This document shows positions 2,170 to 22,200 of a stretch of DNA of 64,000 nucleotides, in pieces. The first letter of the stretch is position 1, and the number at the start of each line of letters is the position of its first letter. The position numbers and the translations under genes were made by a program. The stretch covers positions 28,582,443 through 28,646,442 of the forward strand of contig CM119265.1 of assembly GCA_051294375.1 (NCBI GenBank). The letters are read 5' to 3'. Under the pieces are notes generated by a model. It did no database searches. It worked only from the letters and a program-made list of their open reading frames with translations, and was not told the DNA's origin. Source of the stretch: Paraspadella gotoi (lineage: Eukaryota > Animalia > Chaetognatha).

Positions 2170-2236
2170 TTTATTTCATTTATTTTATTTCATTCGATGA
2201 GAACATGGTTCGTCTATTTAGATCTGCTTACAGCAG

Positions 2237-3273
2237 TGTAATAAAAAAGTAGGTGACGACCTTTGTTATTAGTTTATTTAGTAATTGATATTGCAGGGAT
2301 AGCTTAGGCAAAGCAAGGATTGGCTTTGAGCAAAAGCAAAGGTTGGTCTTAAGAAAAGCTTAAGAAGCAAAAAATTGGTTATAAGTGAAGCAGAGATTGC
2401 CTTTGAGCAAAGAGGGAAATGGCTAAAAACAAAGGGCAGTTAGGAGAAGGCTAAAGCCAAAAGGGGGGCTTTTACGGCCTGCTAAGTCCCAAACCAATTC
2501 CAGAGGAGAAATCACGTGACCAAAATCTGCCTATATAAGGAGGAGTGCCACAGACTGTGGTCAGGAGTCAATTGAGACCCTCTGAAGTGTAAGGGGAAAT
2601 TCTGTCCGGCTGGAAAAGTTACTGGAAAAACGCTTAAGTCCAGGAGAGACTGAAAACGCCTAAGTCCAGGAGAGACTGAAAACGCCTAAGTCCAGGAGAG
2701 ACTGAAAACGCCTAAGTCAGGAGAGACTGAAAACGCCTAAGTCCAGGAAGGACTGGTTGGAAATAATAACTCTAAGGTTAAGTCTGATAAGACTTGGTTA
2801 AGGTTAAGTCTGGTAAGACTTGGTTAAGGTTAAGTCTGGTAAGACTTGGTTAAGGTTAATGGTAGATTAATATAAGGGTCTCAAGTGACTACAGACCACA
2901 GCTTCATAATTCCTAGTGGACTCTCCTCAACTCTCAAGTGGATTTCATTAATACTTTGGCTTACATTTAATTTGAACATGTGTATTTAATTTTGTATATG
3001 TACATTGATTTTACTGTGCTTTAAAAATAATGTATTGAGTCAGTAGTAAAGATATTATTTAAATTTGTACTAAAGATTATTTCTTTATTTTTCTTTTAGG
3101 TTAAATTTTTAATAAAAGCGCCCCAGGTTACAAATCCAGTGGACTCAGGATTTAAATAATAAAGTTTTTAACGCCAGGAACTCCAGTGCCCAAGAACTCA
3201 AGGACTCCAGTTTTTCGATATTTTATAATAAAGTGGGTGGTGGTAAAAAACACCACCCAAGATTTTTATTACA
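2237..3273 (+). repeat. 5' LTR
   Basis: TGTAATAAAAA...TTTTTATTACA 11-bp terminal inverted repeat; TATATAAGG ~2532; 26-bp tandem arrays at ~2625-2750 and ~2773-2860; AATAAA ~3111; GGGTGGTG/CACCACCC hairpin 3235-3258; near-identical to 14038-15043. Confidence 0.95.
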
Positions 3274-3275
3274 TC

Positions 3276-3321
3276 TGGCGCCAACATGTGGGGCTCGAAC
3301 CCACGACCCCGGGATTAAGAG
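3276..3321 (+). promoter_or_regulatory. Extended primer-binding site complementary to tRNA-Lys(CUU)
   Basis: TGGCGCCAACATGTGGGGCTCGAACCCACGACCCCGGGATTAAGAG, starting 2 nt after the LTR, is close to the reverse complement of animal tRNA-Lys(CUU) from the CCA end to the anticodon loop. Confidence 0.9.
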
Positions 3322-3589
3322 AGATTAAAAATAAGGGGAGCAACTAATAACGGTAAGGTATTCGTAACAGGAGGGAAGCGAAGGTACGGCGCAACTCTCA
3401 GCCAACGATCTTCTGACGGGTGAAATCAAGATTAGTCCTGAGAACCTACCAGGAAGGTGCCTGGGAGGAGACGGAGGTACAGATACTAAGGGAAAAGCGA
3501 CAATCGCCGAGGAAGTAGACTCGTTAATAATATGTACGCAAGAGGCGATTCCTGGGAGTTGCGACAGGGGTGCTGAAGAAATCCAAGGA

Positions 3590-4093
3590 ATGGACGAAAT
3601 GCCACAAGAAACGTCGCAGAAATGCGAAACCTTGGAGCAGGAATTGGTCTTTCTAACCGAGCTGCCGCCACAGAAGCAGAGACGGCTGAACACACTGGTA
3701 CGAACGTATAAGGTCTCGGCTTCCACGGGATCCACGCCGACCAAACCAGGGTCTGTTGCAATAAAGTATGGGGCGTCGGAGTCGGAACCTGAAGAATTAG
3801 ACACGGCTCCAAAAAGGTTTGCTTGTCACGAATGTGCTGATGAATTTACGAATAAAAGTGCATTGAACGGGCACCGAAGGTGTCACACTTACGACTGTCC
3901 TGAGTGTAATGAAAGAGTGAAAGGGAGATTTTTATTTGAGCTACACAACGAAGTGAAACATAAAAATTTATATGAGTGCTTGGTATGTGAGGAGACGTTC
4001 ACGGAAAAGGGGAGAATAATTGAACATCTCCTACTCCACGAGGTTTTTAAGGAGGAAGCTAGAAAAATAACGTCAAATATAAGGATACTGTAA
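3590..4093 (+). CDS. Element ORF1: three C2H2 zinc fingers (frame open from 3368)
   Basis: CHECADEFTNKSALNGHRRCH, CPECNERVKGRFLFELHNEVKH, CLVCEETFTEKGRIIEHLLLH. Confidence 0.85.
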   Translation: MDEMPQETSQKCETLEQELVFLTELPPQKQRRLNTLVRTYKVSASTGSTPTKPGSVAIKYGASESEPEELDTAPKRFACHECADEFTNKSALNGHRRCHTYDCPECNERVKGRFLFELHNEVKHKNLYECLVCEETFTEKGRIIEHLLLHEVFKEEARKITSNIRIL

Positions 4094-4662
4094 TGTAGTG
4101 AAAATTGGGGTAGGGAAAAGCCTATCACGCCTCGCTTCGTAAAAGAGATTTTTGGTCGGATTTAAATACACTCAAAATAGAGTTTTTATTTTGTCAATTT
4201 TAAATTATGTCCGAGTATAGAGGGGACGAGTGGTTTGATAAATTGTAAAAGGAGAAAACCCTGTACAAAAAGGGTGGCGTAATTTTCATTTGTTTTTCGT
4301 TCTCATGATAACGTTTATTTAAATTGCCGTTTATCTTAACGCCATAATCATGGCACTTATTTTCACCACACTCGTGGAATCATCTTTTACTAATGCCACA
4401 CTCGTGGTAATATTAATTTTAATTTTCTCATTACGCCATTGATCTGTAACGTTGATTTTAAAAGTGGTTTTGTTTTGATCGTCTCCCGCTTGGGAAAAAT
4501 ATTGTTTATTTACTCGGCTACGGCGCCTGATTTTCGTCCGATAGTCAACATTTTTTTTTCTACTTTTGGATATCTCGCATTTTTTATAGCGTTTCCACTA
4601 ATTGCCTTTTTATAAATTGTCGTGAACCCTCTCGTTGACAGATTAATTACTAAAACGGAGCA

Positions 4663-5241
4663 ATGAACCGCTCAAAAAGCCAAGTTTTCCGTGTAAACCC
4701 TAATACACGGGAACAAGCAACTCAAGCAGACGTAGAGTTGCTAAAATTTAATAACGTTGCATGTAAAACCGGAATAAACAATAATGGATCGACGGAAGAT
4801 GACGGACGGGGCGAGACGGATGTTTCGCCAGGCTCAATGAGTTACTCGGAAACAAGACCTCAGGAGGTGACGAGTGAAGAAGATGATGCATACAGTGAAG
4901 AAAGTGGAACGCGATCGGATGGGAGTAGGACTAGTAAAAGTAAGAAAAGGGAGTTTAAGAAACTAGGAAGAGACTGTTGGGACGAACATTGGGAAAAACG
5001 CACTGTAATGAACAAACGTGATTGTTTTAAATGTAGTATTTGTAATAAAACACTGTCTGCTAGAATCCACTTGGATATCCACAACGAGACTGTGCACTCT
5101 GTAGTTTATCGGTGTTTAATTTGTAAAAAATATATAAAGAAAAAGGATAAAATTGTAGTACATGTGTTAATGCATAAGGAAATGGAAATTTTTGCAAAAG
5201 ACGTTTTTTGTTGCATAGAAACTAAAGAGAGGAATAAGTAG
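4663..5241 (+). CDS. Element ORF2: acidic disordered N-terminus plus two C2H2 zinc fingers
   Basis: CSICNKTLSARIHLDIHNETVH and CLICKKYIKKKDKIVVHVLMH; AG acceptor at 4640-4641 upstream of the ATG. Confidence 0.85.
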   Translation: MNRSKSQVFRVNPNTREQATQADVELLKFNNVACKTGINNNGSTEDDGRGETDVSPGSMSYSETRPQEVTSEEDDAYSEESGTRSDGSRTSKSKKREFKKLGRDCWDEHWEKRTVMNKRDCFKCSICNKTLSARIHLDIHNETVHSVVYRCLICKKYIKKKDKIVVHVLMHKEMEIFAKDVFCCIETKERNK

Positions 5242-5370
5242 AATTTTACGTAAGGGTCATGAAAGTTCTGTAAAATAATATCAGCTGCTAAAATTCTCAA
5301 AAATCTTAAAATAATTTAATGTTTTTTCTTTATCACACAGATAAAACTCGAATTAATTAAGTTTACTAAA

Positions 5371-6297
5371 ATGGAATCTAATGAACTGAAAAATTGTTTT
5401 AGCGAATTAAGGGAGTGGGAAATGAAAAATAAGTTATCTGTAAACCAATTAACTGAAGGCCAGCGCAGGCTTGAAATGCAGATAGAGTATGAAAGAAAGG
5501 ATAAGGAAAAGGCTATCCAAAGGTTACGCGATGAGGAAATTAAAAATAGGGACTTACGAAAATTAGTCGCTGAACTTGGTCAAGGGATTCAATTTAAGAG
5601 TAGGGAAAAAGAGGGATTCATGAACGTAAGATTGAAAAAAGATATTGGGTTGAGAGAGACACAATGGGTAGAGACGGAAACGTTGACATATATCTTAAAA
5701 ACGAAAGGGGTTTTGAATGAGGTAGTAAGGGAGATGCAAGAATTTGAACGGAAACCATGGGAAACTAACAAGGAAGCGTGTATACCTACTAAAGTAATAA
5801 GATCAGAATCCCTAATGAAAGTATTCTTTGAGCAAGTTGATTTGACCATATTTACTAAAGAAAGGGAAAGGTTGGATAACGAGTGGAAAAAATTATGCTT
5901 AAAAAGTAAGGAAGTTGAAATATTACGGGAAAAAGTGTATGAGAACCGGGAAGTCATACAAAATTTCTATGAGAAGGAAATAATTGGTATTGTAAAGGAG
6001 AAGATGGACCAGGTTAAGAAAATATATAGCAACGTATGGAATAACCAAAATACTGAAGAAGGCAAGAACTTGATTGATAATAAAAGAATTAACTTTGAAG
6101 AGGACGAGATTCAAGTTTACGTCTCCCCAGAAGAAATCGTGGAAATGGAAGGGAATAATGTAAGTGAAAATGTACATTATGAAAAACAAAATGAGGTAGT
6201 CAATGAAAATATCAAGAATAGTATGGTAGAGAATAGGGGAACAAAAAGAGATGGAGACGGGAATCCAAAAGGAGTGATAAGTAATATAGACAAAGGT
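5371..6297 (+). CDS. Element ORF3, N-terminal part: coiled-coil protein, possibly Gag-like
   Basis: E/K/R-rich helical ORF running into the N gap at ...GVISNIDKG; the same sequence resumes at ~10745. Confidence 0.7.
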
Positions 6298-6322
6298 NNN
6301 NNNNNNNNNNNNNNNNNNNNNN

Positions 6323-9300
6323 TTCCGTTCTTCATGATAACGTTTATTAAAAAGCCGTTTAATGCTTAACGCCATTAATCATGGCACTTATTTTCACCGA
6401 CACTCGTTGTAATTCATCCTTTTACTAATGCCACACTCGTGGTAATATTTAATTTTAATTTTCTCATTTTACGCCATTGATTCTGTAAACGTTTGATTTT
6501 AAAATTGGCTTTTGGTTTTTGATCAAGAATATAACATCTACGGCTTGGGAAATAAATATATTGTTTTTATCTTACCTCTCGGCTATCGGCGCCTGATTTT
6601 TCGTTCGATAGTCAACATTTTTTTCTACTTTTGGACCTATCTCGCATATTTTTCCCTATAGCTCTCCTTTCCACTTTAATTTCTGCCTTATTTTATAAAA
6701 TATTGCTCTCTGTGAATCTCCCTACTCGTTGACAGACAATTTATACTCTATAATAAACGGCCAGCAATTGAACCCGCTGCAAAAATGCACATTCTAAGTG
6801 ATATATATACGTGTAAACCCTAATTACACGTGCGATAAACAAGCAACTCAAGCCCTCAGACGTTAAGTTGCTAATATAATAACGTTGTGCAATATGGGTG
6901 TTAAAACCGAAGAATTAAACAATAATGGAATTCGTGGAAGGATGACGACGGGAGCGAGGACGGATGTTTTCGCCAGGCTTTTCACATGATGTTACTCTGG
7001 AACAAAGACCTCAGGAGGGTTGAACGATGTGAGAACAAATGATGTCCACTTGCATTCCTACAGTGAGATAGTTGAGAAACGCGAATTTCGGATGGGACGT
7101 GTCAGGACTAGATAAAAGTAAGATAAGGTGTAGATTATTTTAAGAACACTTATATAGGAAGTAGACTGTTTGGGTCACGAAATGGGGAAAAAACGTCCTA
7201 CATGTTTACCATGAACAATTAAACGTTGTTATAACCTGTCCACGTATTTAGTAATAAAATCATCTGTCTGAAACTCTAAGAATTCCACTTGGCATGAGTC
7301 TCACACCCACGAGTATGTGCAACAAAATCCCTCGTCCACCGTCTTCATCGTGGAATCTAATTTGTATAAAAACATATATTATAAAAAGAAAAATGTCGTA
7401 ATAATATTATAGTACATGTGTTAATAGCCAATTAAGGAAATGGATAATTTTTGCAAAGAACGATTTTTGTCTGCATAGATACTAAGGAGAGGACCTATAA
7501 GATAAGAATTTCCTACTCCGTAAGGGGTTTCATGAATATGTTCTGTAAAATAATATCAGTCTTGCTAAAATTCTTTCAATAAATCTTAAATAATAATTTA
7601 GTTTTCTCATTTATACACAAGATTTAAAAACTTCGACTATTTAATTAAGTTTTACTAAAAATGGAATCTATTATGGCAACCTGCACCAAAAATTATTGTA
7701 TTTAAGCGAATTAATGCGGCATGTTGGAGATGAATTATATTATGAGTTATATTGTTAATACCCCAACTTAACTGAAAGGCTAGTGCTGCAGGCTTGAAAA
7801 ATATCTTGTGCAAAGATAAAGAGTATGAATAAGAAAGGTATTAGCGAATGGCTATATCCAAATGGTACGCTGTATGACTGTTGAAATAAATAAGGACTTT
7901 TACGTAATAAAATAGTCGCTGAACTTGGTCAAGGGCATTCTCAATTTATAGTGGAGTAGGGTGAAAATAAGATGGGATTTCATGATACTTGTATTTGTGA
8001 ATAAATATATTTGGGTTTTGAGAAGACACTAATTGGTTAGATGACGGTAAACTGTTGACATATATCTTATAAACGTAAAGGAGGAATGTGGACAGACTCT
8101 ACGATACATTAGGGTGTTAAACGTTTATTAACGATGCAATACAATGACATAAAAAGGTGAAATAAAAAGGTAATGCAATTACACAGTGGAAATGAGACAA
8201 AATCGATGTTTACTTAGTGAATGAAAGGTTTAGAAAGGCATTGAACGTTGTGTCTATTCTTCGTGGGCTAACGCGTGGCCATCGACCGGAAGGAAACCCC
8301 GTTGAAAGCCAGCGGGACGACGAGACCAATGACCTGAGGTTCTAAGAGGTCATGGTGGTCGTTGAGGGAAAAGATGAGAGAGATAGTCGAGGTAGCTCGG
8401 CCTTCATCCCCCCCATCAAGTTCGTTGTCTCCGGAAAGAGGGCGCGGAACTGATAACTACAGCTTCTTGCCGTGGTCCATGAATTGCATAAAGGGGAATT
8501 GGTTGCTTTTGCGCACAAAAGAGGTCGCTGTTTGTATGTCACATAAAGTTTGTCAAGTCCTAAATCCAATGAGGCCGTAGGAAATATAACGGAATATATA
8601 ATTTAGAGCGTGTGATAGCTCATCTGCGGTTTTTGGCGTCGTGTCTGTGGCGCTCTGCCACGGCGTTTTTTGCCGTCTTCCACGCATTGCTGTTTTTAAG
8701 TAGCTCTAGTTGTAGCAGAGGCTTGTTCATATTCTGCAGCCTTTTTTTCTGTGGACGTGTGGCCGACAATTCCGAGGTTATTTCCTCAGGGAACTTCGTA
8801 GTTGGCGTCAAAGAAAAGGCTGTCATCAATTATCGCCAGAGTCACTGGGCAACAGAGGTGGATGAAAGGCGACGATATTAATGATGGGAGACCTTTGTTT
8901 GTTTTTGTTGATTTTGTCGTAAGATAAAGGTGAAAGAAATAGAAAAAGAGTGATAAGTAATAAAAGTGGGTAAAGGAACGGAACATTTTTGAGAAAATAT
9001 ATTAAAATAGTAGGAAATTAACAAGTAGGTAGAATAAAAAGTAAGAAAAAAAATAAAAAATGGAGCAAATTTATATATTTGAATTGTTTAGAAAAAAGCG
9101 TTAAGGTTTTTTGTTTCATTGTAGGAATTATGTTTGCAGCATTGAAGGAGCAATTCAAGGCATTGAAGGAGTTTGCTTCTTTAGAGCATTCAGATAAAAA
9201 CGTCAGATTCGGTTTACTGCCAGAATCACGAGCAGAGGCTGATGCCACGAGCTTTTGGATACGCAAATTGACGAAGGTGTCGGCGATAGTTTTGGTAGAG

Positions 9301-10780
9301 ATAAGTTTTTTCTCGGCGTCTTCTTGCTTTGCTCGTCAACGGCCGTCGTTAGTAAACGTCGGGAAAAAGAAAACGATGAGGGCGACTCAACCAGTGTTGG
9401 AGTTTTTTGGCAGAGAGATTTGTCAGAGAGGGTTTTGGTAATGTTAGGTGGAGGATTTATATTATTCTCCAGAGTAGATGGTGACCCGCCGACACCGGAG
9501 ATAAGGGACTTAAATTGGAGGTGTGAAAAAGGAGTCTTTTTTGGAGGGGACATGGAAACGAGACAGGCGAATCGCCCTTGTGAATGCAAGGCTGATTGGG
9601 TGAATCCTTGCTTTCACAAAGAATTGTATTTTTTACTAAAAGCGGAAGATTCAAAACAAGTTCCAATTCATCCATTTTTTCTTGTTCACGTTGGGAGGTA
9701 GGATACTTAGTTGGGAGGTTGGTTGGCAATATTGTAAACATTTTCAGAGGTTTTTTTTTTTTTTATGGGCGGGGAAGGTTTTTAGGAGGCTTTTTTTTTT
9801 TATATAGTATTTTTCACAGAAGGCTTTTTGGGCGTGTTCTCCGTCGGGCTCACCAATGTGGGAGACACGACAATAGGGTGTAAACAGTTTATTACGAGGC
9901 AATTACAATGACATAAAAAGGTGAATAAATAATGAATTACACAGTGGAGAGACAAAACGATGTTACAGGATAAAGGTGTTAATTAGTTGTGTCTCTCGTG
10001 CTTCGCGCCGACCGAGAAGACCCGTTGAAGCCCACGAACAATGACCTGAGGTCTGAGGTCATGTGGTCGTTGAGCGGAAAAGAGAGGAGAGTCGATAGTA
10101 GCTCAGGTCCTCAGGGTTTGAATATAGTATCAGGTAGTAAGGAGATGCAATGAATTGAACATAATCGTAATGGGAAAGAATAAAGCAATTAAGAGAGCGG
10201 ATCGTATTAATTACTAAACTAATAAAAAGTAATAGAATCAGATATGCCTCCCTAATGAAATGTATTCTTTGAGCAAGTTGATTTGACCATATTTTACTTA
10301 AAGAAGGGAAAGGTGGTTGGTATAACGAGTGGAAAAATATATGCTTAAAAAGTAAGGAGAAGTGAAATATTACGAAAAGTGTATGAGAACCGGGAAGTCA
10401 TACAAAATTTCTATGAGAAGGAAATAATTGGGTATTTGATAGGAGAAGATGGACCAGGTTAAGAAAAATAATTAGCAACGTATGGAATAACCAAAATTAC
10501 TGAAGAATGGCAAGAACTTGATTGATAATAAAAGAATTAACTTTGAAGGACGAGATTCAAAGTTTACGTCTCCCAGAAGAAATCGTGGAAATGGAAGGGA
10601 ATAATGTAAGTGAAAATGTACATTATGGAAAAAACAAAATGAGGTAGTCAATGAAAAATATCAAGAATAGTATGGTTAGAGAATAGGGGAACAAAAAAAG
10701 AGATTGGAGACGCGGGAAATCCATAAAGGCAGTCCGAATAAAGTGGGAATCCAAAAGGAGTGATAAGTAATATAGACAAA
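6323..10780 (+). other. Error-rich duplicate of ~4330-6297 (unpolished read or alternate allele) carrying a nested insertion
   Basis: Colinear with 4330-6297 but full of single-base indels; begins right after an N gap. Confidence 0.85.
8087..10113 (-). mobile_element. Small nested LTR element (TRIM/non-autonomous-like) with tRNA-Trp-like PBS
   Basis: Direct repeats 8087-8406 and 9857-10113 with TG..CA ends; on the minus strand TGGTGAGCCCGACGGAG follows the 5' LTR and GGGGGGGA precedes the 3' LTR; it interrupts the ORF3 copy at AAGGGG. Confidence 0.75.
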
Positions 10781-10927
10781 GGTCTCGATCCCGGATGTAA
10801 GATATTATGCTGTGGAATTAGGAGGTGTGGGAAATGCTTCCACAGTCACGGGGACCAAGTTGATTGCCCATGCCTGCATACAAGGCAATTTATTGATTTC
10901 GTGGAAGGTGGAGAGCTATTTGATTAA
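10745..10927 (+). CDS. Element ORF3, C-terminus: Cys/His-rich, zinc-knuckle-like
   Basis: GNPKGVISNIDKGLDPGCKILCCGIRRCGKCFHSHGDQVDCPCLHTRQFIDFVEGGELFD*, continuing the ORF cut at 6297. Confidence 0.7.
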   Translation, partial: GNPKGVISNIDKGLDPGCKILCCGIRRCGKCFHSHGDQVDCPCLHTRQFIDFVEGGELFD

Positions 10928-11083
10928 CTATAAATAATAGGACTCGGTGAACAAGTTGTGCGATAACGCTGTGTTAATAATTGTGTTGACAAGTGTTAAT
11001 TGGAATTGAACAGTGTTTTATTCTTGAAGTGTATTGATAATTCTTGCCTTTCATGTTATGTTCTTTCTTCTTTCAGTAACGAA

Positions 11084-12675
11084 ATGGAACTGAAATTAAG
11101 TGACAGTGTGGTAAACTTATTTGAGACAAACATCCCAAAAAAGAATGACCTCTTGCACGCACAAAGCAAGACAAGGGAATTCAACTCCTAAAGCAAGCCA
11201 TTCTGGATGGCAATAAACCGGACTTCAAAGACAAAGTCATTAAAGGATTTAAATCCGTCTTCCGGTCACTGGAGCTCGATGACGGAATATTGGTGAGAAA
11301 GACTCCTGGCGGGAATACAGCAATCGTGGTCCCAGAAAGTAAGGTAAATGAAATCCTTTATCATACTCATGGTAGTCCGTTGTCAGCACATTATGGGATA
11401 AGTAAATCATATTATAAGTTGGTGAAACATTTTTATTTTCCAAAGATGGTTGTTAAATTATCTGACTTTATAAATACCTGCCCGTTGTGTGTACGTAGAA
11501 AAAGTCCCAAAAATAAGCCAATGGCGGAGATTCAGCCTATTAGCGTAGACAGCTACGATATTGGGGGATGTATATCTTATGATTTTAAAGGCCCTTTGCC
11601 AGTTAGTGACAAATCTATATTGTATCAATGTAAAAATCGATTCGTACTAGTAATTATTGATCACGCATCAAGGTTTGTATTGGCTCATCCGACGCCCACC
11701 ATGGAAGCGTCGGTTGTGGCGGAAGTCATTATTTCGTCTTGGATACCGAGATTTGGAGTGCCAAGAGCCATTATCTCAGATCGGGCTAAAACGTTCACGG
11801 GTAAAATTCTTAGAACTATATATGAAAGCCTCCAAATAGATATTTGCTTAACAGCGTCGTACAATCCGGCCGCTAATGGATTAATAGAACAAGTGAATAG
11901 AAATATTTCTAATATTTTAACGGTCATGTTGGATGGCTTTATGGCCGACTGGCCAAAGCAATTAAATTTATTATTTAGCGCGTATAACTCGAGCCCCAAT
12001 ATATCAACCGGGGTATCGCCAAACTACATAGTATATGGGAGAAACTTAATTGAACCTATTGATCTTATTTTAACCAGGAGGGAAACTATTGGCTGGAAGG
12101 AGAGAAAAATTTTGGACGAATTGGAGGAACGGTTACGAGCAAGAAGAAAAGTAATGGAGATATTGAACCTAAGGTACGAGGAGGGGCAGGAGAAGAGGAG
12201 GGAGAAATCTAAAGTTAAAGCCAATGTCCCAACTTATGTAGTTGGGGAATTAGTGGGCTTTGAGCCACCGTTGCAACCGGGGAAACTTTTAAAGTCCTAT
12301 GAGATTAATCATACAGTGATAAAAGTACTATCTCCAACAACGTATGTAATAAAAAACAATGAAACGGGTTTTGAAAGGGTTGTTAATGCAAGAAAACTAA
12401 AAAAGGCGGTAACAAGAAAACTTAAACCAGTAGAATGTCAAAATGGGGGAATAATAATTGAGGAACAATCTGATTTCTCAGATGCGTCGTCCGGATCCGA
12501 GGGAGAAGGCACTAACACGTGGGTGCAACAAACACGAACAAACGGAGAAAGCGTAATTGATGGACGAGCCGAACCTGTAAAAATAAGTACGCAAAAAGAA
12601 GAGGATATGAATATGTGGGATAAACGTTTGAGAGACAGGAAACTTTTGAATAAACCGAAAAGATTTGAATTATAA
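11084..12675 (+). CDS. Gypsy-type DDE integrase as a separate ORF (one probable 1-bp indel near 11168)
   Basis: HHCC (HTHGSPLSAHYG...CPLC), catalytic YDFKGP / ISDRAKTF / NGLIEQVNR, degenerate GPY/F region, basic C-tail RDRKLLNKPKRFE; acceptor TTCTTTCTTCTTTCAG ending 11076, ATG 11084. Confidence 0.92.
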
Positions 12676-12810
12676 TGACGAAAATGTTTTACTGAATAAA
12701 TAAAGTTAGATTATGGTCTTAAGTTTTGTCGGGGGGGGGGGAATGTAGAACATAAAATGTCCTACATTTGTTCTTTATTCTAGGTACGATAAATACTGAA
12801 ATAAATAAAT

Positions 12811-13914
12811 ATGTACGCGTTAACCAATGTCGGAATATACGTCAAACTCCTAAGTTATGGTAGAGACGATGAGGCGTTTGAATTAGCATTGAAAAAAGTA
12901 ATCAAAGGATCATTGCATATGGCAATTGAGTATGGTAGGGAGAGGGTTACGAGGAAGTTACTTGAGGAAGGAATTGATCCAAATGAAGTGAGGAACCATG
13001 ACGGACTTACGCCATTGCATATTGCAGTAATGAAGAAAAACGTGAATATCGTGGAACAGCTAATGGTGCGAGGAGCAGACGTGATGAAATGTGATTATTC
13101 AGGGAATAATTGCCAGGCTAAACTACTAAGAAAACGGTATGATTCAAAGTCTAAAATAGTAATGGAGCTCATTAAAAATAAGATGTCTGAACAGGACTTT
13201 AAGATAAAGAATACTCATGGGGAGACATTATTACACATAGTGGCTTCTAACCCAGAAATAGTAGATATACGGTTGTATGAGATGCTGTTAACAATGGGAG
13301 TGCCAACAGATGTACAGAATGAATACTCGGGACGCACATTCCTTATGGACTTATGTAATAATAATCTGGATGATGAATTTATAATAGAGGCTATAGAATT
13401 CGCTAGAAACAAAGGGATAGATATCAATCAAGAGGACAAGAACCAGAATACTTTACTACAGTATGCTATTACTAAGGGAAATAGGAAAGTAACAAAGACA
13501 TTGCTTGACATCCCGGATACCAAAGTAATAACTAAAAATGTGATGGATGTAACTCCGATGTGGAATGCAGCATTTAAGGGCGACTTAAGGATGGTTAAGG
13601 ACATTTACAGAGCAGGTGGAAATCTGGAAGATACTGCATATGTTAATGCAGCAACTACCAAGCCCATACCAACATGGCAGGCAGCTCGCAGGTCTCGTCA
13701 CGAGTTTGTAGCAAGAAAGATTATTGAATTCATGACAGGAGTAGAGGAAGGACAGAACATTACCAGGGAAGTTAAGAGTTTAAAACATCTAACTAAACTA
13801 ATTATTCGGAATGAGTTGGTTAGGAGTAACCAGGGAAGAGTATTAATTGACCAGTACGAAGGGCTTAAACTACCCAAGACCCTTGAACAGTACTTAAAGG
13901 AAATACAGTACTGA
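12811..13914 (+). CDS. Ankyrin-repeat plus C-terminal SOCS-box protein (ASB-like) inside the LTR element
   Basis: About 7 ankyrin repeats (GLTPLHIAVMKKNVNIVEQLMVRGADV, GETLLHIVA, NTLLQYAITKGN, TPMWNAAFKGD); BC-box VKSLKHLTKLIIR and cullin box LKLPKTLEQYL; intronless and intact. Confidence 0.9.
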   Translation: MYALTNVGIYVKLLSYGRDDEAFELALKKVIKGSLHMAIEYGRERVTRKLLEEGIDPNEVRNHDGLTPLHIAVMKKNVNIVEQLMVRGADVMKCDYSGNNCQAKLLRKRYDSKSKIVMELIKNKMSEQDFKIKNTHGETLLHIVASNPEIVDIRLYEMLLTMGVPTDVQNEYSGRTFLMDLCNNNLDDEFIIEAIEFARNKGIDINQEDKNQNTLLQYAITKGNRKVTKTLLDIPDTKVITKNVMDVTPMWNAAFKGDLRMVKDIYRAGGNLEDTAYVNAATTKPIPTWQAARRSRHEFVARKIIEFMTGVEEGQNITREVKSLKHLTKLIIRNELVRSNQGRVLIDQYEGLKLPKTLEQYLKEIQY

Positions 13915-14037
13915 AACTTCATTGTCTATTTGAGATTGCCTGAAGCACGGAGGAAACTACCTGGTTAAGGGAATTTTATGGTGCTTGAAAGCATGAAACT
14001 GCATGAGGACATGCAGAAGTTTTGTCCGGGACAGGGA

Positions 14038-15043
14038 TGTAAATAAAAAAGTAGGTGACGACCTTTTTTATTAGTTTATTTAGTAATTGATATTGCAGGG
14101 ATAGGCTTTAGGCAAAGCAAGGATTGGCTTTGAGCAAAAGCAAAGTTTGTCTTAAGAAAAGCTTAAGAAGCAAAAAATTGTTATAAGTGAAGCAGAGATT
14201 GCCTTTGAGCAAAGAGGAAATGGCTAAAAACAACAGGGCAGTTAGGAGAAGGCTAAAGCAAAGGGGGGCTTTTACGGGCCTGCTAAGTCCCAAACCAATT
14301 CCAGAGGGAGAAATCACGTGACCAAAATCTGCCTATATAAGGAGGAGTGCCACAGACTGTGGGTCAGGAGTCAATTGAGACCCTCTGAAGTGTAAGGGGA
14401 AATTCTGTCCGGCTGAAAAGTTACTGGAAAAACGCTTAAGTCAGAGAAACTGAAAACCTAAGTCCAGGAGAGACTGAAAACGCCTAAGTCCAGGAGAGAC
14501 TGAAAACGCCTAAGTCCAGGAGAGACTGAAAACGCCTAAGTCCAGAAGGACTGGTTGGAAATAATAACTCTAAGGTTAAGTCTGATAAGACTTGGTTAAG
14601 GTTAAGTCTGGTAAGACTTGGTTAAGGTTAATGGTAGATTAATATAAGGGTCTCAAGTGACTACAGACCACAGCTTCATACCTAGTGGACTCTCCTTCAA
14701 CTCTCAAGTGGATTTCATTAATACTTTGCTTACATTTTAATTTGAACATGTGTATTTAATTTTGTAATGTACATTGATTTTACTGTGCTTTAAAAAATAT
14801 GTATTGAGTCAGTAGTAAAGATATTATTAAAATTTGTACTAAAATTATTTTCTTTATTTTTCTTCCAGGTTAAATTTTTAATAAAAGCGCCCCAGGTTAC
14901 AAACTCCATGGACTTCAGGATTTAAATAATAAAGTTTTTAACGCCAGGAACTCCAGTGCCCAAGAACTCAAGGACTCCAGTTTTTCGTATTTTATAACTA
15001 AAAGTGAGTGGTGGTAAAAAACACCACCCAAGATTTTATTACA
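14038..15043 (+). repeat. 3' LTR
   Basis: Direct repeat of 2237-3273, preceded by GGGACAGGGA, followed by TSD AGCAG; one fewer AAGGTTAAGTCTGGTAAGACTTGGTT unit. Confidence 0.95.
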
Positions 15044-15448
15044 AGCAGATTCCGGCTTGACTATTCATTTTGTCGGTTCTGTCAGAACATCGAATTATGA
15101 AAAATTTGGCAAAAAAACCGATGTCCGTCTGTCTGTCTGTCTGACTGTCTGTTTGTCTGTTCTTCCATCCTACCTTAGCTTTAATCGCTGATTACTCTTG
15201 AGTGGATGAGGCTTTTAACTTAAAAATTTGTGTGAAGGTAAATAAGTATGTGATTGAGTTGTAAATCAAGCAAAAACAGCTCCCGCTCCCAACTGTACCA
15301 GTGTTATGATGTAAATATTTTCAATTTGTTATAAACAAATATAAACGTCAGGGAGTTTTCTAACTATTGATAAGATCAAATATCAATAATAGTCAGTCAG
15401 TTAAGAGTTATAACAACTCTTTTCATTTTATTCCATTTTTAGAGAGAT

Positions 15449-18007: not shown

Positions 18008-19229
18008 ATGAAGATCACGGAATTTCGAATTTTGCTTCCGATGGAACTGGAAGAATATCGGGTCGGGCAACTTTATTCCATCTTGGAGAGCGCTAAGGTT
18101 AAAGTCACTGTTTTGGATTATAAACATATGTAGTATTATGTAGTATTACGATTTTTTTTATAGATCAGAACTTGAAGGTTTTTTTTTTTTAAGTTTTTTT
18201 TATAACTGTGTGATGTTTAATTTTTAACGTGTTTTTTACGGATTCAGAAAATGCTCAAAAAGTCAATTATTATTATTATTAAATATTATGTTTTAGTTAT
18301 AAAAATCTAACGAAATCTACATACTAATTCTGCAAATGATGATGATGATGATAATGGATTTTAAATTTTTGACTCATTATTAAAGTTTAAAAAGGTTTAA
18401 TAATCTTTTTTAGCTTTTTTAGCTTCATCAAAATCCATTCTTAAAAACTATAATTTACTGAAAAATATTAAATATTTTTTTTAAAAGGCTCAATTCCTTT
18501 TTTTTACGATCCAAAAACCATAAAAAATTTTTTTTTCAAAAGTTACAGAGGAAATCGTTTTTTGTAGTAAGGCAAAATAATAATTGATCTCTGTTATAAA
18601 AATACAAAATTCTGAGACACCTTAATGTCAATCCCTATTAGAAAGAAACGGGAGGCGGGGAAGGATGGGAAATCGTGGCCAACGAACCCATAGACAAAAA
18701 ATTACCAGAAGATTTGTTCAAATTCGCGGGCGACCGAGTTCCCCACAGGGGCCAATATACCCATAAAATAGCCCACGTGGCGTCGAAGGCCCCAAGGTGG
18801 GTCAGGATTTTGGCCCCGCGAGGTTCATTGGAGTTTAAAGAGGAAGCTTGGAACTATTATCCTTACACGAGGTGAGAATAATTAAATTTAATTTAATTAA
18901 ATTTATTAATTTTTTTTTAGACATCGTTATTTCCTTTCGTTTCGTTGTGTTTGGCATGATAGAAAACGTTTTTTAGATTGATCAAACAACGATTTTTATT
19001 AATATGAGACGGACATGTTTCGCTTTAGTTTCTACAAGCCTTCATTGCGTCAGAGATAATTATTGAAACTTTCAAAAAAGATTTGTGCAAAAGAAATGAG
19101 AGAGAGAGAGAGAGAGAGGGCAAAGTTTCCAACACAGAGTTGAGAGAAGAATAGTGGTCAGATGTGAGGACAGGTTAAGGTAAGGACAGAATGAGCCAGA
19201 TGTGAAAGAAAACTTAATGGTGAAAATTT

Positions 19230-19260
<31 letters not shown>

Positions 19261-22200
19261 ACATTTGAAAATAATACATTTTTTGTAATGTACAACAAAG
19301 ATAAATTTTAGACTAAAGGTGAAATAAATATTTTAACAATTAACTACTAATAAAAATTGAAAATGAAAAGTGAAATTTGAGAGATTTGTGAAATAAGGGA
19401 GACCTTTGCACAGGCAATGGGCAAACGATGCCTCTCCTTCAACTGCAGCAACTCATTCCCTTTCTCTGTGAAGTGAGCGTCCACCCAAAAGGCGCTGCAG
19501 GAGGAAGGGGAGGAGTCCACAACTCATGTCGCCAAAGCGGCAAGAACGGACAACCACCCATCTTGCCAGCAGGCGAGAAGAGGGCGAGTCGACAGGCGTA
19601 CCAGGCCAGAGAGACATTAGAGTAGCCTTGGACTCTTCCCACAAGGAAGCCTTCCCAGTCCAACACACATAGCTCAACCAATATGACCTCTCAGCCATTG
19701 ACACGTCAATGACTCGACCACATCGTCAAGACCCTTCATTTGCTTCAACCAAAGGGGGCCAGCTCACTTTGAGCTCTTTCTTAATCCTTGAATTTCACTT
19801 TATTTCATAATAATACTTATTTCACAATCTCTCAAATTTCACTTTTTCATTTTCAATTTTCACATCTTATTTATTTTAGTAGTTAATTGTTTAAAATATT
19901 TATTTCACCTTTAGTCTAAAATTTATCTTTGTTGTACATTACAAAAAATGTATTATTTTCAAATGTTCTCTCTCTCTCTCTCTCTCAAATTTTCACCATT
20001 AGTTTCTTTTCACAATCTGGCTCATTCTGTCCTTACCTTAACCTGTCCTCACATCTGACCACTATTCTTCTCTCAACTCTGTGTTGGAAACTTTGCCCTC
20101 TCTCTCTCTCATTTCCTTTGCACAAATCTTTTTTGAAAGTCATAATTATCTCTGACGCTGATGAAGGCTTGTAGAAACTAAAGCCGAACATGTCCGTCTC
20201 ATAGCTAATAAAAATCGTTGCTTGCATCAATTCTAAAAACGTTTTCTATAATTTTTTTTAAAATTATGTTTCTTATTCACTTGCAAAAAATAGCGTTTAA
20301 TGAATGTATATATAGTTTATACACTGTTTTAATGTTTCACTGTTTCAATTAATCAATTAATCTTTAAATATTTGAATTTTATAAATTTCTCACTATGATA
20401 AAAGACGTTTTAAATTGTTCAAACAAGGATTTTATTAGTGTAAGACGGACATGTTTCGGCTTTAATTGTACAAGCCTTCATTGGCGTCAAAGATGTTTGT
20501 GAAATTTCAAACAAAGTTTATGCAAAGGAAAAGAGAGAGAGAGAGAGAAAGAGAGAGAGGGCAAAGTTTCCAACACAGAGTTGAGAGAAGAATAGTGGTC
20601 AGATGTGAGGACAGGTTAAAGTGAGGACAGAATGAGCTAGATTGTGAAAAGAAACTAAATGGTGAAAAATTGACAGAGAGAGAGAGATAGAGAGAACATT
20701 TGAAAGATAATACATTTTTTGTAATGTACAACAAAGATAAATTGTTGAAACTAAAGGTCAAATAAATATTTTAACAATTAACTATTAATAAATAACAGTG
20801 TGAAAAATGGAAAAGTGAAAAGTGAAATTTGATAGTTTTGTGAAATAAGTATTATTATGAAATAAAGTGAAAGTTCAAGGATTAAGAAAGAGCTCAAAGT
20901 GAGCTGGCCCCCTTTGGTTGAAGCAAATGAAGGGTCTTAACGATGTGGTCGAGTCATTGACGTGTCAATGGCTGAGAGGTCATGTTGGTTTAGACTGTGT
21001 GTGTTGGACTGGGATGGCTTCCTTGCGGGAAGAGTCCAAGGGCTACCCTAATGTCTCTCTGGCCTGGTACGCCTGTCGACTGCCCTCTTCTCGCCTGCTG
21101 GCGAGATGGGTGGTTGTCTGTTCTTGCCGCTTTGGCGACATGAGTTGTGGACTCCTCCCCTTCCTCCTGCAGCCGTCTTTTGGGTGGACTCACTTTGAGC
21201 TCTTTCTTAATCCTTGAACTTTCACTTTATTTCATATTAATACTTATTTCACAAAACTCTCAAATTTCACTTTTCACTTTTCAATTTTTCACACTCTGTT
21301 ATTTATTAATAGTTAATTGTTAAAATATTTATTTCACCTTTAGTTTCAACAATTTATCTTTGTTGTACATTACAAAAAATGTATTATCTTTCAAATGTTC
21401 TCTCTATCTCTCTCTCTCTCTCTCAATTTTTCACCATTTAGTTTCTTTTCACAATCGAGCTCATTCTGTCCTCACTTTAACCTGTCCTCACATCTGACCA
21501 CTATTCTTCTCTCAACTCTGTGTTGGAAACTTTGCCCTCTCTCTCTTTCTCTCTCTCTCTCTCTTTTCCTTTGCACAAACTTTGTTTGAAATTTCACAAA
21601 CATCTTTGACGCCGATGAAGGCTTGTACAATTAAAGCCGAAACATTTCCGTCTTACACTAATAAAATCGTTGTTTGAACAATTTAAAACGTCTTTTATCA
21701 TCCAAACACAACGAAACAAAAGGAAATAACGATGTCTAACAAATTTCTCACTGAATCCTATTGTCTCTATATCATCTTTATCTCAATCTCATCTCAATCT
21801 CATCTCAATCGCATCTCATCTCATCTCAATCTCATCTCAATCTCACCTCAATTTCATATCAATCTCATCTCAATCTCATTCTAATCTCATCTTAATCTCT
21901 TCTAAATCTCAATTTCCTCTAAATCTCAATCTCATTTTCAATCTCAATCTCATCTAAATCTCATCTTAATCTCATCTAAATCTCATCTTAATCTCATTTC
22001 ATCTAATATTAATCTCATCTTAATTTCATCTTAATCCCATCTTAATCCTATCCTAATCCCAAGGACGGTTATCACGAATCCGGAATACATGAAGGACAAG
22101 TTTTCTGTGGATACAAAGTCAGTCTTTGTTGGCGACGACGAAGGAAAACAAGAGAACATCTTTGGTCTGTCGGAAGAGGAACTGGGGAAAAGAGAGGTGA

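Follow-up and report, generated by a model that had tools for sequence, protein, structure and literature searches.

Textbook LTR retrotransposons and retroviruses cut their integrase from the Pol polyprotein. The stretch of Paraspadella gotoi DNA analyzed here, 64,000 nt of AT-rich, microsatellite-rich eukaryotic sequence (hereafter the window), contains an LTR element whose integrase begins with its own ATG, and it raises the questions whether such an integrase is the product of a random deletion or the trait of a lineage, how it could be expressed, and whether the present copy is still functional. The reading that we favor with moderate confidence is that of a Ty3/Gypsy-derived lineage with a separate integrase gene, likely expressed from a spliced sub-genomic mRNA, the element at hand being a member that lacks reverse transcriptase (RT), is likely copied in trans, and has a probably dead integrase of its own.

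The element spans positions 2237–15043 (plus strand, here and below unless stated otherwise) and is bounded by a target-site duplication, AGCAG, with the identical five letters just outside each LTR (2232..2236 and 15044..15048). The 5' LTR (2237..3273) is of the TG..CA type with an 11-nt terminal inverted repeat, and carries a TATA-like signal at 2532, an acceptor-like site at 3099, and AATAAA at 3111. It is 93% alike to the 3' LTR (14038..15043); in approximately 990 matched columns, the two differ by 9 substitutions and by 33 gap events, mostly of a single base (28). The insertion is recent and the element young. Each LTR also contains donor-like and strong acceptor-like sites just 5' of AATAAA (2589–3099 and 14392–14868), a possible LTR intron. 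The primer-binding site (3276..3293), read directly, starts with TGG two bases inside the LTR. ARAGORN and Rfam gave no match to it; we take it to correspond to tRNA-Lys, with a tRNA-like match that presumably extends over some 45 nt versus the usual 18. The 3' polypurine tract occupies 14024..14037, and is mirrored by a second tract-like motif followed by TGTA at 12721..12748. Two copies of the tract, each with the upstream context and TGTA, are thus present (12721–12748 and 14017–14041), on either side of the ankyrin-SOCS cassette described below, as if a tract had been duplicated when the cassette was acquired, or as if the element used a central tract.

The true length of the element is about 8.3 kb. 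Beyond an assembly gap of 25 N (6298..6322), the segment 6323..10744 is a noisy re-read of 4295–6275 at 75–87% identity, the differences being mostly indels; the repeats of 4295–6275 lie at 6323–8081 and 10129–10733 and flank a nested insertion of about 2 kb, and the window disagrees with short-read contigs up to 10745 and agrees with them thereafter. This assembly duplicate makes the element appear 4.4 kb longer than it is. The nested insertion (8085..10111, minus strand), inside the noisy copy of ORF3, is itself a small LTR-like element without a Pfam domain, having 260–320-nt direct end repeats (TG..CA-like) and, on the minus strand, motifs that resemble a tract and a primer site; it occurs only in the noisy copy, and is perhaps confined to one haplotype.

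Five ORFs follow each other in the element. ORF1 (3368..4093, first ATG at 3590) encodes three C2H2 zinc fingers, and its paralog ORF2 (4663..5241; 31% identity over 77 aa) encodes two. ORF3 consists of a 5' part (5371..6297) encoding a coiled coil and a helical region, and a 3' end with the stop codon (10745..10927) encoding a Cys/His knuckle-like run, CX2CX3HX5C; the latter segment shows no differences in the contigs of samples X4 and X5. The integrase comes fourth, and the ankyrin-repeat and SOCS-box ORF (12811..13914, 367 codons), preceded by its own acceptor-like site at 12783, is the last. ORF3 occupies the Gag position and has a knuckle-like end, and from this position it is possibly a Gag. 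Its AlphaFold model has a pLDDT of 45, no homolog was found among 1738 candidates, no Pfam family was assigned, the match to a Gag profile was not significant, and all atlas matches scored below 0.9. The frame 10776–10934 was considered as a protease relic and rejected, having no Pfam or profile match. No env family was matched in the five ORFs, where the top 19-residue hydropathy is 0.6–1.15. The domain content of the ankyrin-SOCS cargo suggests that host ubiquitin ligases are redirected by the element.

Protease (PR), RT, and RNase H (RH) are missing from the whole element, and there is no Pol polyprotein ORF. In the six frames of 2237–15043, neither YxDD nor ADxLSR nor a canonical protease motif occurs, and the four loose D[ST]G matches all lie outside the spacer that precedes the integrase. 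In tblastn searches, 15 canonical Gypsy polyproteins matched only 11149–12519, and a PR-RT-RH profile of 93 segments found no match in the element among the 1821 six-frame pieces of the window, with the integrase as a positive control scoring 803 bits. The LTRs, the primer-binding site, and the polypurine tract imply reverse transcription, and since the element has no RT, it must be provided in trans.

The relatives of the integrase show how far this arrangement extends. A search with the integrase returned 27 matches, 17 of which are 45–58% identical (314–620 aa) and 10 are 24–34% identical. No RT or RNase H family was detected in the 17 close relatives. In 14 of them, a Met stands 8–15 residues before a conserved xxFE motif (10 in the window), one of the remaining three has a later start, and two are cut short; these relatives are known as proteins without DNA context, and gene finders begin their calls at a Met. 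A search for longer proteins yielded 61 matches, all 22–35% identical. A profile search covering 1.84 billion representatives added two proteins, P0100 and P0104 (31% identical; 541 and 549 aa), which have a Met close to where the profile begins; everything that scored below them was a canonical polyprotein. Of the 243 proteins, the 24 that score at least 350 bits and cover the N-terminus, among them the window and its near-copies, have at most 50 upstream residues and never an RNase-H-end motif (0/24). By contrast with these, proteins below 250 bits (n = 190) mostly have a long upstream part (166/190) and often the RNase-H-end motif (128), and none fall between 250 and 350 bits. P0095–P0129 were considered as fused relatives and rejected: the gene models examined are of canonical Gypsy type, most of them from pseudoscorpions, and their scores sum two or more integrase stretches, each below 250 bits.

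In a FastTree phylogeny of 139 of the 243 proteins (score at least 190, core spanned), 23 stand-alone rows, including P0100 and P0104/P0242, are set apart by a branch with SH support of 100; the clade label is partly circular, being set by profile score with a profile built from 21 of the clade's rows, a circularity from which P0100 and P0104/P0242, outside the profile, are exempt. The clade is long-branched and has no supported named sister, its nearest named relatives being canonical RT-RH-IN polyproteins. A metagenome scan gave 17 loci at 23–34% identity, the long ones again canonical polyproteins, and none of 14 pattern matches in a viral scan was related. Alignment of the integrase profile with Ty3 Gag-Pol starts at residue 1020, at profile position 17. 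As mature Ty3 integrase presumably starts near residue 1012, the new ATG would stand about where the protease would cut.

The same order of ORF3 end, spacer, and integrase as in the window is seen in contigs of three samples from two studies (X4, X5, and X6), and one X6 contig bridges all three parts (10745–12069). An earlier note on this DNA had argued against a random deletion, and had named copies with contiguous RT-RH-IN as what would speak against its view. Its argument is upheld by the Met shared among the relatives and by the other samples, and none of the close relatives has RT-RH joined to its integrase. Judging from these sequences, the stand-alone integrase appears to be a trait of the lineage and not a local deletion, a conclusion that we regard as well supported.

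One may go further and suppose that the entire lineage is RT-free: an old, diversified LTR lineage, a kind of satellite or second segment with its own spliced integrase, a particle protein, and zinc-finger and ankyrin-SOCS ubiquitin-ligase adaptor genes as accessories, whose RT is always borrowed. We consider this a tentative possibility, clearly less probable than the favored reading. Neither the 156-nt spacer nor any other part of the element holds an RT relic, the four other ORFs are open, and loss of the protease would make a free-standing integrase necessary. In addition, a sister family has pieces of the integrase and of the ankyrin ORF in common with the element as far as the 3' tract, and its integrase is under purifying selection. 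On the other hand, the relatives are known as proteins, so that an RT may sit upstream as an ORF of its own, and RT-less deletion derivatives such as TelKA2n are common (PMC5408684).

Returning to the lineage with a separate integrase gene, the copy in the window is broken. Its N-terminal piece (11084..11191) starts with the ATG, runs for 35 codons to a stop, and aligns with the N-termini of the relatives. The main frame (11149..12675) contains the HHCC finger, the DDE core (D at 11581, D at 11779, and E at 11887), and the C-terminal domain, with the Pfam families H2C2 and rve, and it opens at 11149, shifted by one base relative to the frame of the ATG. The NLFE and HYG codons lie 275 nt apart, compared with 90–92 whole codons in most relatives, which confirms the single 1-bp indel that the earlier note had placed between the two frames. 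The same note had treated the offset as an error to be polished away, and here it is contradicted: contigs of X4 (11029–11662), X5 (11029–12500), and X6 (10745–12069) cross the overlap 11149–11191 with no gaps, hence the offset is genuine and not an assembly or sequencing error. With a genuine offset no full protein would be made, and the integrase of this copy is probably dead.

Alternatively, the offset could be bypassed by recoding or alternative splicing, the subfamily still making its integrase. The offset is shared by the majority contigs in all three samples compared, the LTRs are less than 1% apart, and four of the five downstream changes among the differences listed, those between the integrase of X5 and X6 and that of the window, are synonymous (expected share 0.22–0.28; p 0.01–0.02), which is not easily reconciled with a gene that died long ago. 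Against this, no canonical slippery heptamer was found in the overlap 11149–11191 on inspection by eye, and the sole nearby heptamer (11134–11143) precedes the stop of the second frame. Short-read contigs drop minority alleles, so open-frame copies may be hidden, and the surplus of synonymous changes can be due to such copies or to recombination with them. We therefore regard a bypass as unlikely; given the lack of a canonical slippery site in the overlap, an integrase dead in this subfamily is more likely than recoding.

A source of active integrase could be the sister family, found in the same organism at similar depth (X4 record 4, X9 record 24), which has an integrase approximately 85% identical to that of the window and pieces of the ankyrin ORF; 10 of the 14 differences listed for its integrase are synonymous. 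One X9 contig of depth 2.1 lacks 277 nt inside the integrase, bounded by GT..AG (11801..12077), as a cryptic intron would be. X9 is only guessed to be RNA (share 0.16, depth in 14 of 30 bins), and its cover leaves out position 11076. The contig indicates that RNA of the element is probably spliced somewhere. Removal of this segment would break the integrase, a possible case of silencing by splicing.

Splicing is also the route by which a free integrase would be expressed. The spacer between ORF3 and the integrase (10928..11083) is intron-like, with stops in all three frames and a candidate acceptor CAG at 11074–11076. Its description in the earlier note holds throughout: the distance given there as about 155 nt is 156 nt, from the TAA at 10925–10927 to the ATG at 11084; the six-frame scan, tblastn, and profile agree that it contains no RT, protease, or RNase H-end motif; and the pyrimidine tract ending in AG at 11076 has 17 pyrimidines in the 20 positions before CAG. 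An acceptor of this strength was reached within 80 nt of the ATG in 38 of 10,000 shuffles of the spacer, and anywhere in the spacer in 112 of 20,000. The same shuffle test gave 4 of 10,000 for the ankyrin acceptor, 582 of 10,000 for the acceptor-like site of ORF3 (5340), and 4114 of 10,000 for that of ORF2 (4589). Only the integrase and ankyrin acceptors are thus clearly above chance, those of ORF3 and ORF2 being weak or ordinary. In the accurate internal sequence, four of the seven acceptor-like sites with at least 13 pyrimidines sit 7–73 nt before the first ATGs of ORF2, ORF3, the integrase, and the ankyrin ORF.

Between X6 and the window (10745–12069), eight of ten differences are in the 156-nt spacer (five of seven events, p ~0.0004), and none affects the acceptor or the ATG; the spacer changes faster than the ORFs, as an intron would. 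The relatives provide a further trace. Five of them have 18–50 extra residues before the Met, in no case resembling an RNase H end (0/5), and in four of the five these residues are rich in F, L, I, C, Y, and V. In three of the five, two of which are sister sequences, the residue directly before the Met is Q, which makes up 3% of residues. This is what a translated pyrimidine tract followed by CAG-ATG would give. Taken together, the strength of the acceptor, the like sites before other ORFs, the faster change of the spacer, and the Q before Met in three of five relatives make it likely that the integrase of the lineage is translated from its own spliced mRNA, as the sequence evidence predicts. 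Without splicing, the separate integrase ORF would have to be translated by re-initiation after ORF3 or by internal ribosome entry, or transcribed from an internal promoter, the pyrimidine tract being incidental; this is somewhat more doubtful than a bypassed offset, as the two ORFs are separated by a 156-nt gap with no overlap, and as each of the two strong acceptors lies just 5' of a first ATG.

In the expression scheme that we favor, transcription from the 5' LTR would give one transcript. A candidate major donor, GTAAGG (3352..3358), was found by motif scan just 3' of the primer-binding site, the place where the major donor of retroviruses is located. Joining of this donor to the acceptors before ORF2, ORF3, the integrase (11076), and the ankyrin-SOCS ORF would put the ATG of each ORF first on its own mRNA, and would release a free integrase that needs no protease cut. 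By analogy with foamy-virus Pol, the integrase could be packaged by binding the element RNA or a Gag. RT would be supplied in trans by a helper, an autonomous relative that encodes PR-RT-RH in a further ORF, or by another element altogether.

The element resembles Ty3/Gypsy (Metaviridae) in its HHCC-DDE integrase, with residues 1020–1448 of Ty3-G (PDB 7q5b, E 9e-26) as the best solved match, and in its TG..CA LTRs, primer-binding site, polypurine tract, and 5-bp duplication. It differs in that the integrase does not form the C-terminus of a Pol polyprotein, PR, RT, and RH are absent, Gag is unrecognizable, and two C2H2 ORFs and an ankyrin-SOCS ORF are present; having no pol polyprotein, it is not an autonomous Ty3/Gypsy element. 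One could see in it an ordinary Gypsy element that lost PR-RT-RH by chance deletion, with an accidental ATG and acceptor, as such derivatives are common and the nearest named relatives are canonical RT-RH-IN polyproteins, but these polyproteins are just 22–35% identical and the Met start is common to a clade of 31–58% identity, so this very improbable explanation is largely refuted.

Four other systems are partly similar. In foamy viruses, Pol is translated from a spliced mRNA without Gag and is packaged via contacts with RNA and Gag (PMC3705302). Such split expression is a model for how the element likely works, with the acceptor and the ATG present here and the splicing predicted; the foamy Pol, however, is one PR-RT-IN precursor cut by protease, whereas here the integrase alone has an ATG and there is no env. 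The bdelloid elements Vesta, Juno, and TelKA carry an extra ORF after the integrase, typically expressed from a spliced message, and include a non-autonomous family without most of pol (PMC5408684). In contrast to the present element, all families treated there are described as canonical PR-RT-RH-IN with env, GDSL, or DEDDy cargo, and no ankyrin cargo is described (PMC5408684). The planarian Burro/GYPSM1 elements are also Gypsy-like with ankyrin repeats and ubiquitination-related cargo, but encode one giant polyprotein that comprises PR-RT-RH-IN and has homology to env (PMC6431247). The Ginger1 and Ginger2 DNA transposons share a stand-alone Gypsy-like integrase, but have terminal inverted repeats of 40–270 bp, CCGG/CCGT targets, and OTU/Ulp1 tails (PMC2836005). 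A Ginger-like DNA transposon using the integrase as a cut-and-paste transposase, for which integrase-only coding with splicing is described as typical (PMC2836005), can be dismissed as highly improbable in view of the 1-kb direct LTRs, 11-nt inverted ends, primer-binding site, polypurine tract, and non-CCGG 5-bp duplication (AGCAG), and of the absence of OTU and Ulp1 domains and of the GPY/F motif. In narrow searches of the open literature we found no report of LTR elements in which integrase has a separate, spliced gene; subscription papers, Repbase entries, or supplements may describe such.

The Pol polyprotein couples integrase to RT and protease in amount, packaging, and activation. Where a free integrase has been retained across 31–58% identity, its packaging and timing must be achieved in another way, and such a lineage offers a natural experiment on the reason for the polyprotein being universal elsewhere. 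Should RT prove to be absent throughout the lineage, the retroelement would be divided into parts, with copying and integration encoded on different genomes.

Outside the element, the window contains host ORFs: 56385–57821 (478 aa, minus strand), to which no Pfam family was assigned, 41724–44614, encoding a NACHT NTPase followed by a 335-aa frame, and 45947–47041, encoding Kelch repeats without interruption. The region 19100–21700 holds several long inverted repeats with 94–100% complementarity, either a palindromic element or an assembly fold-back.
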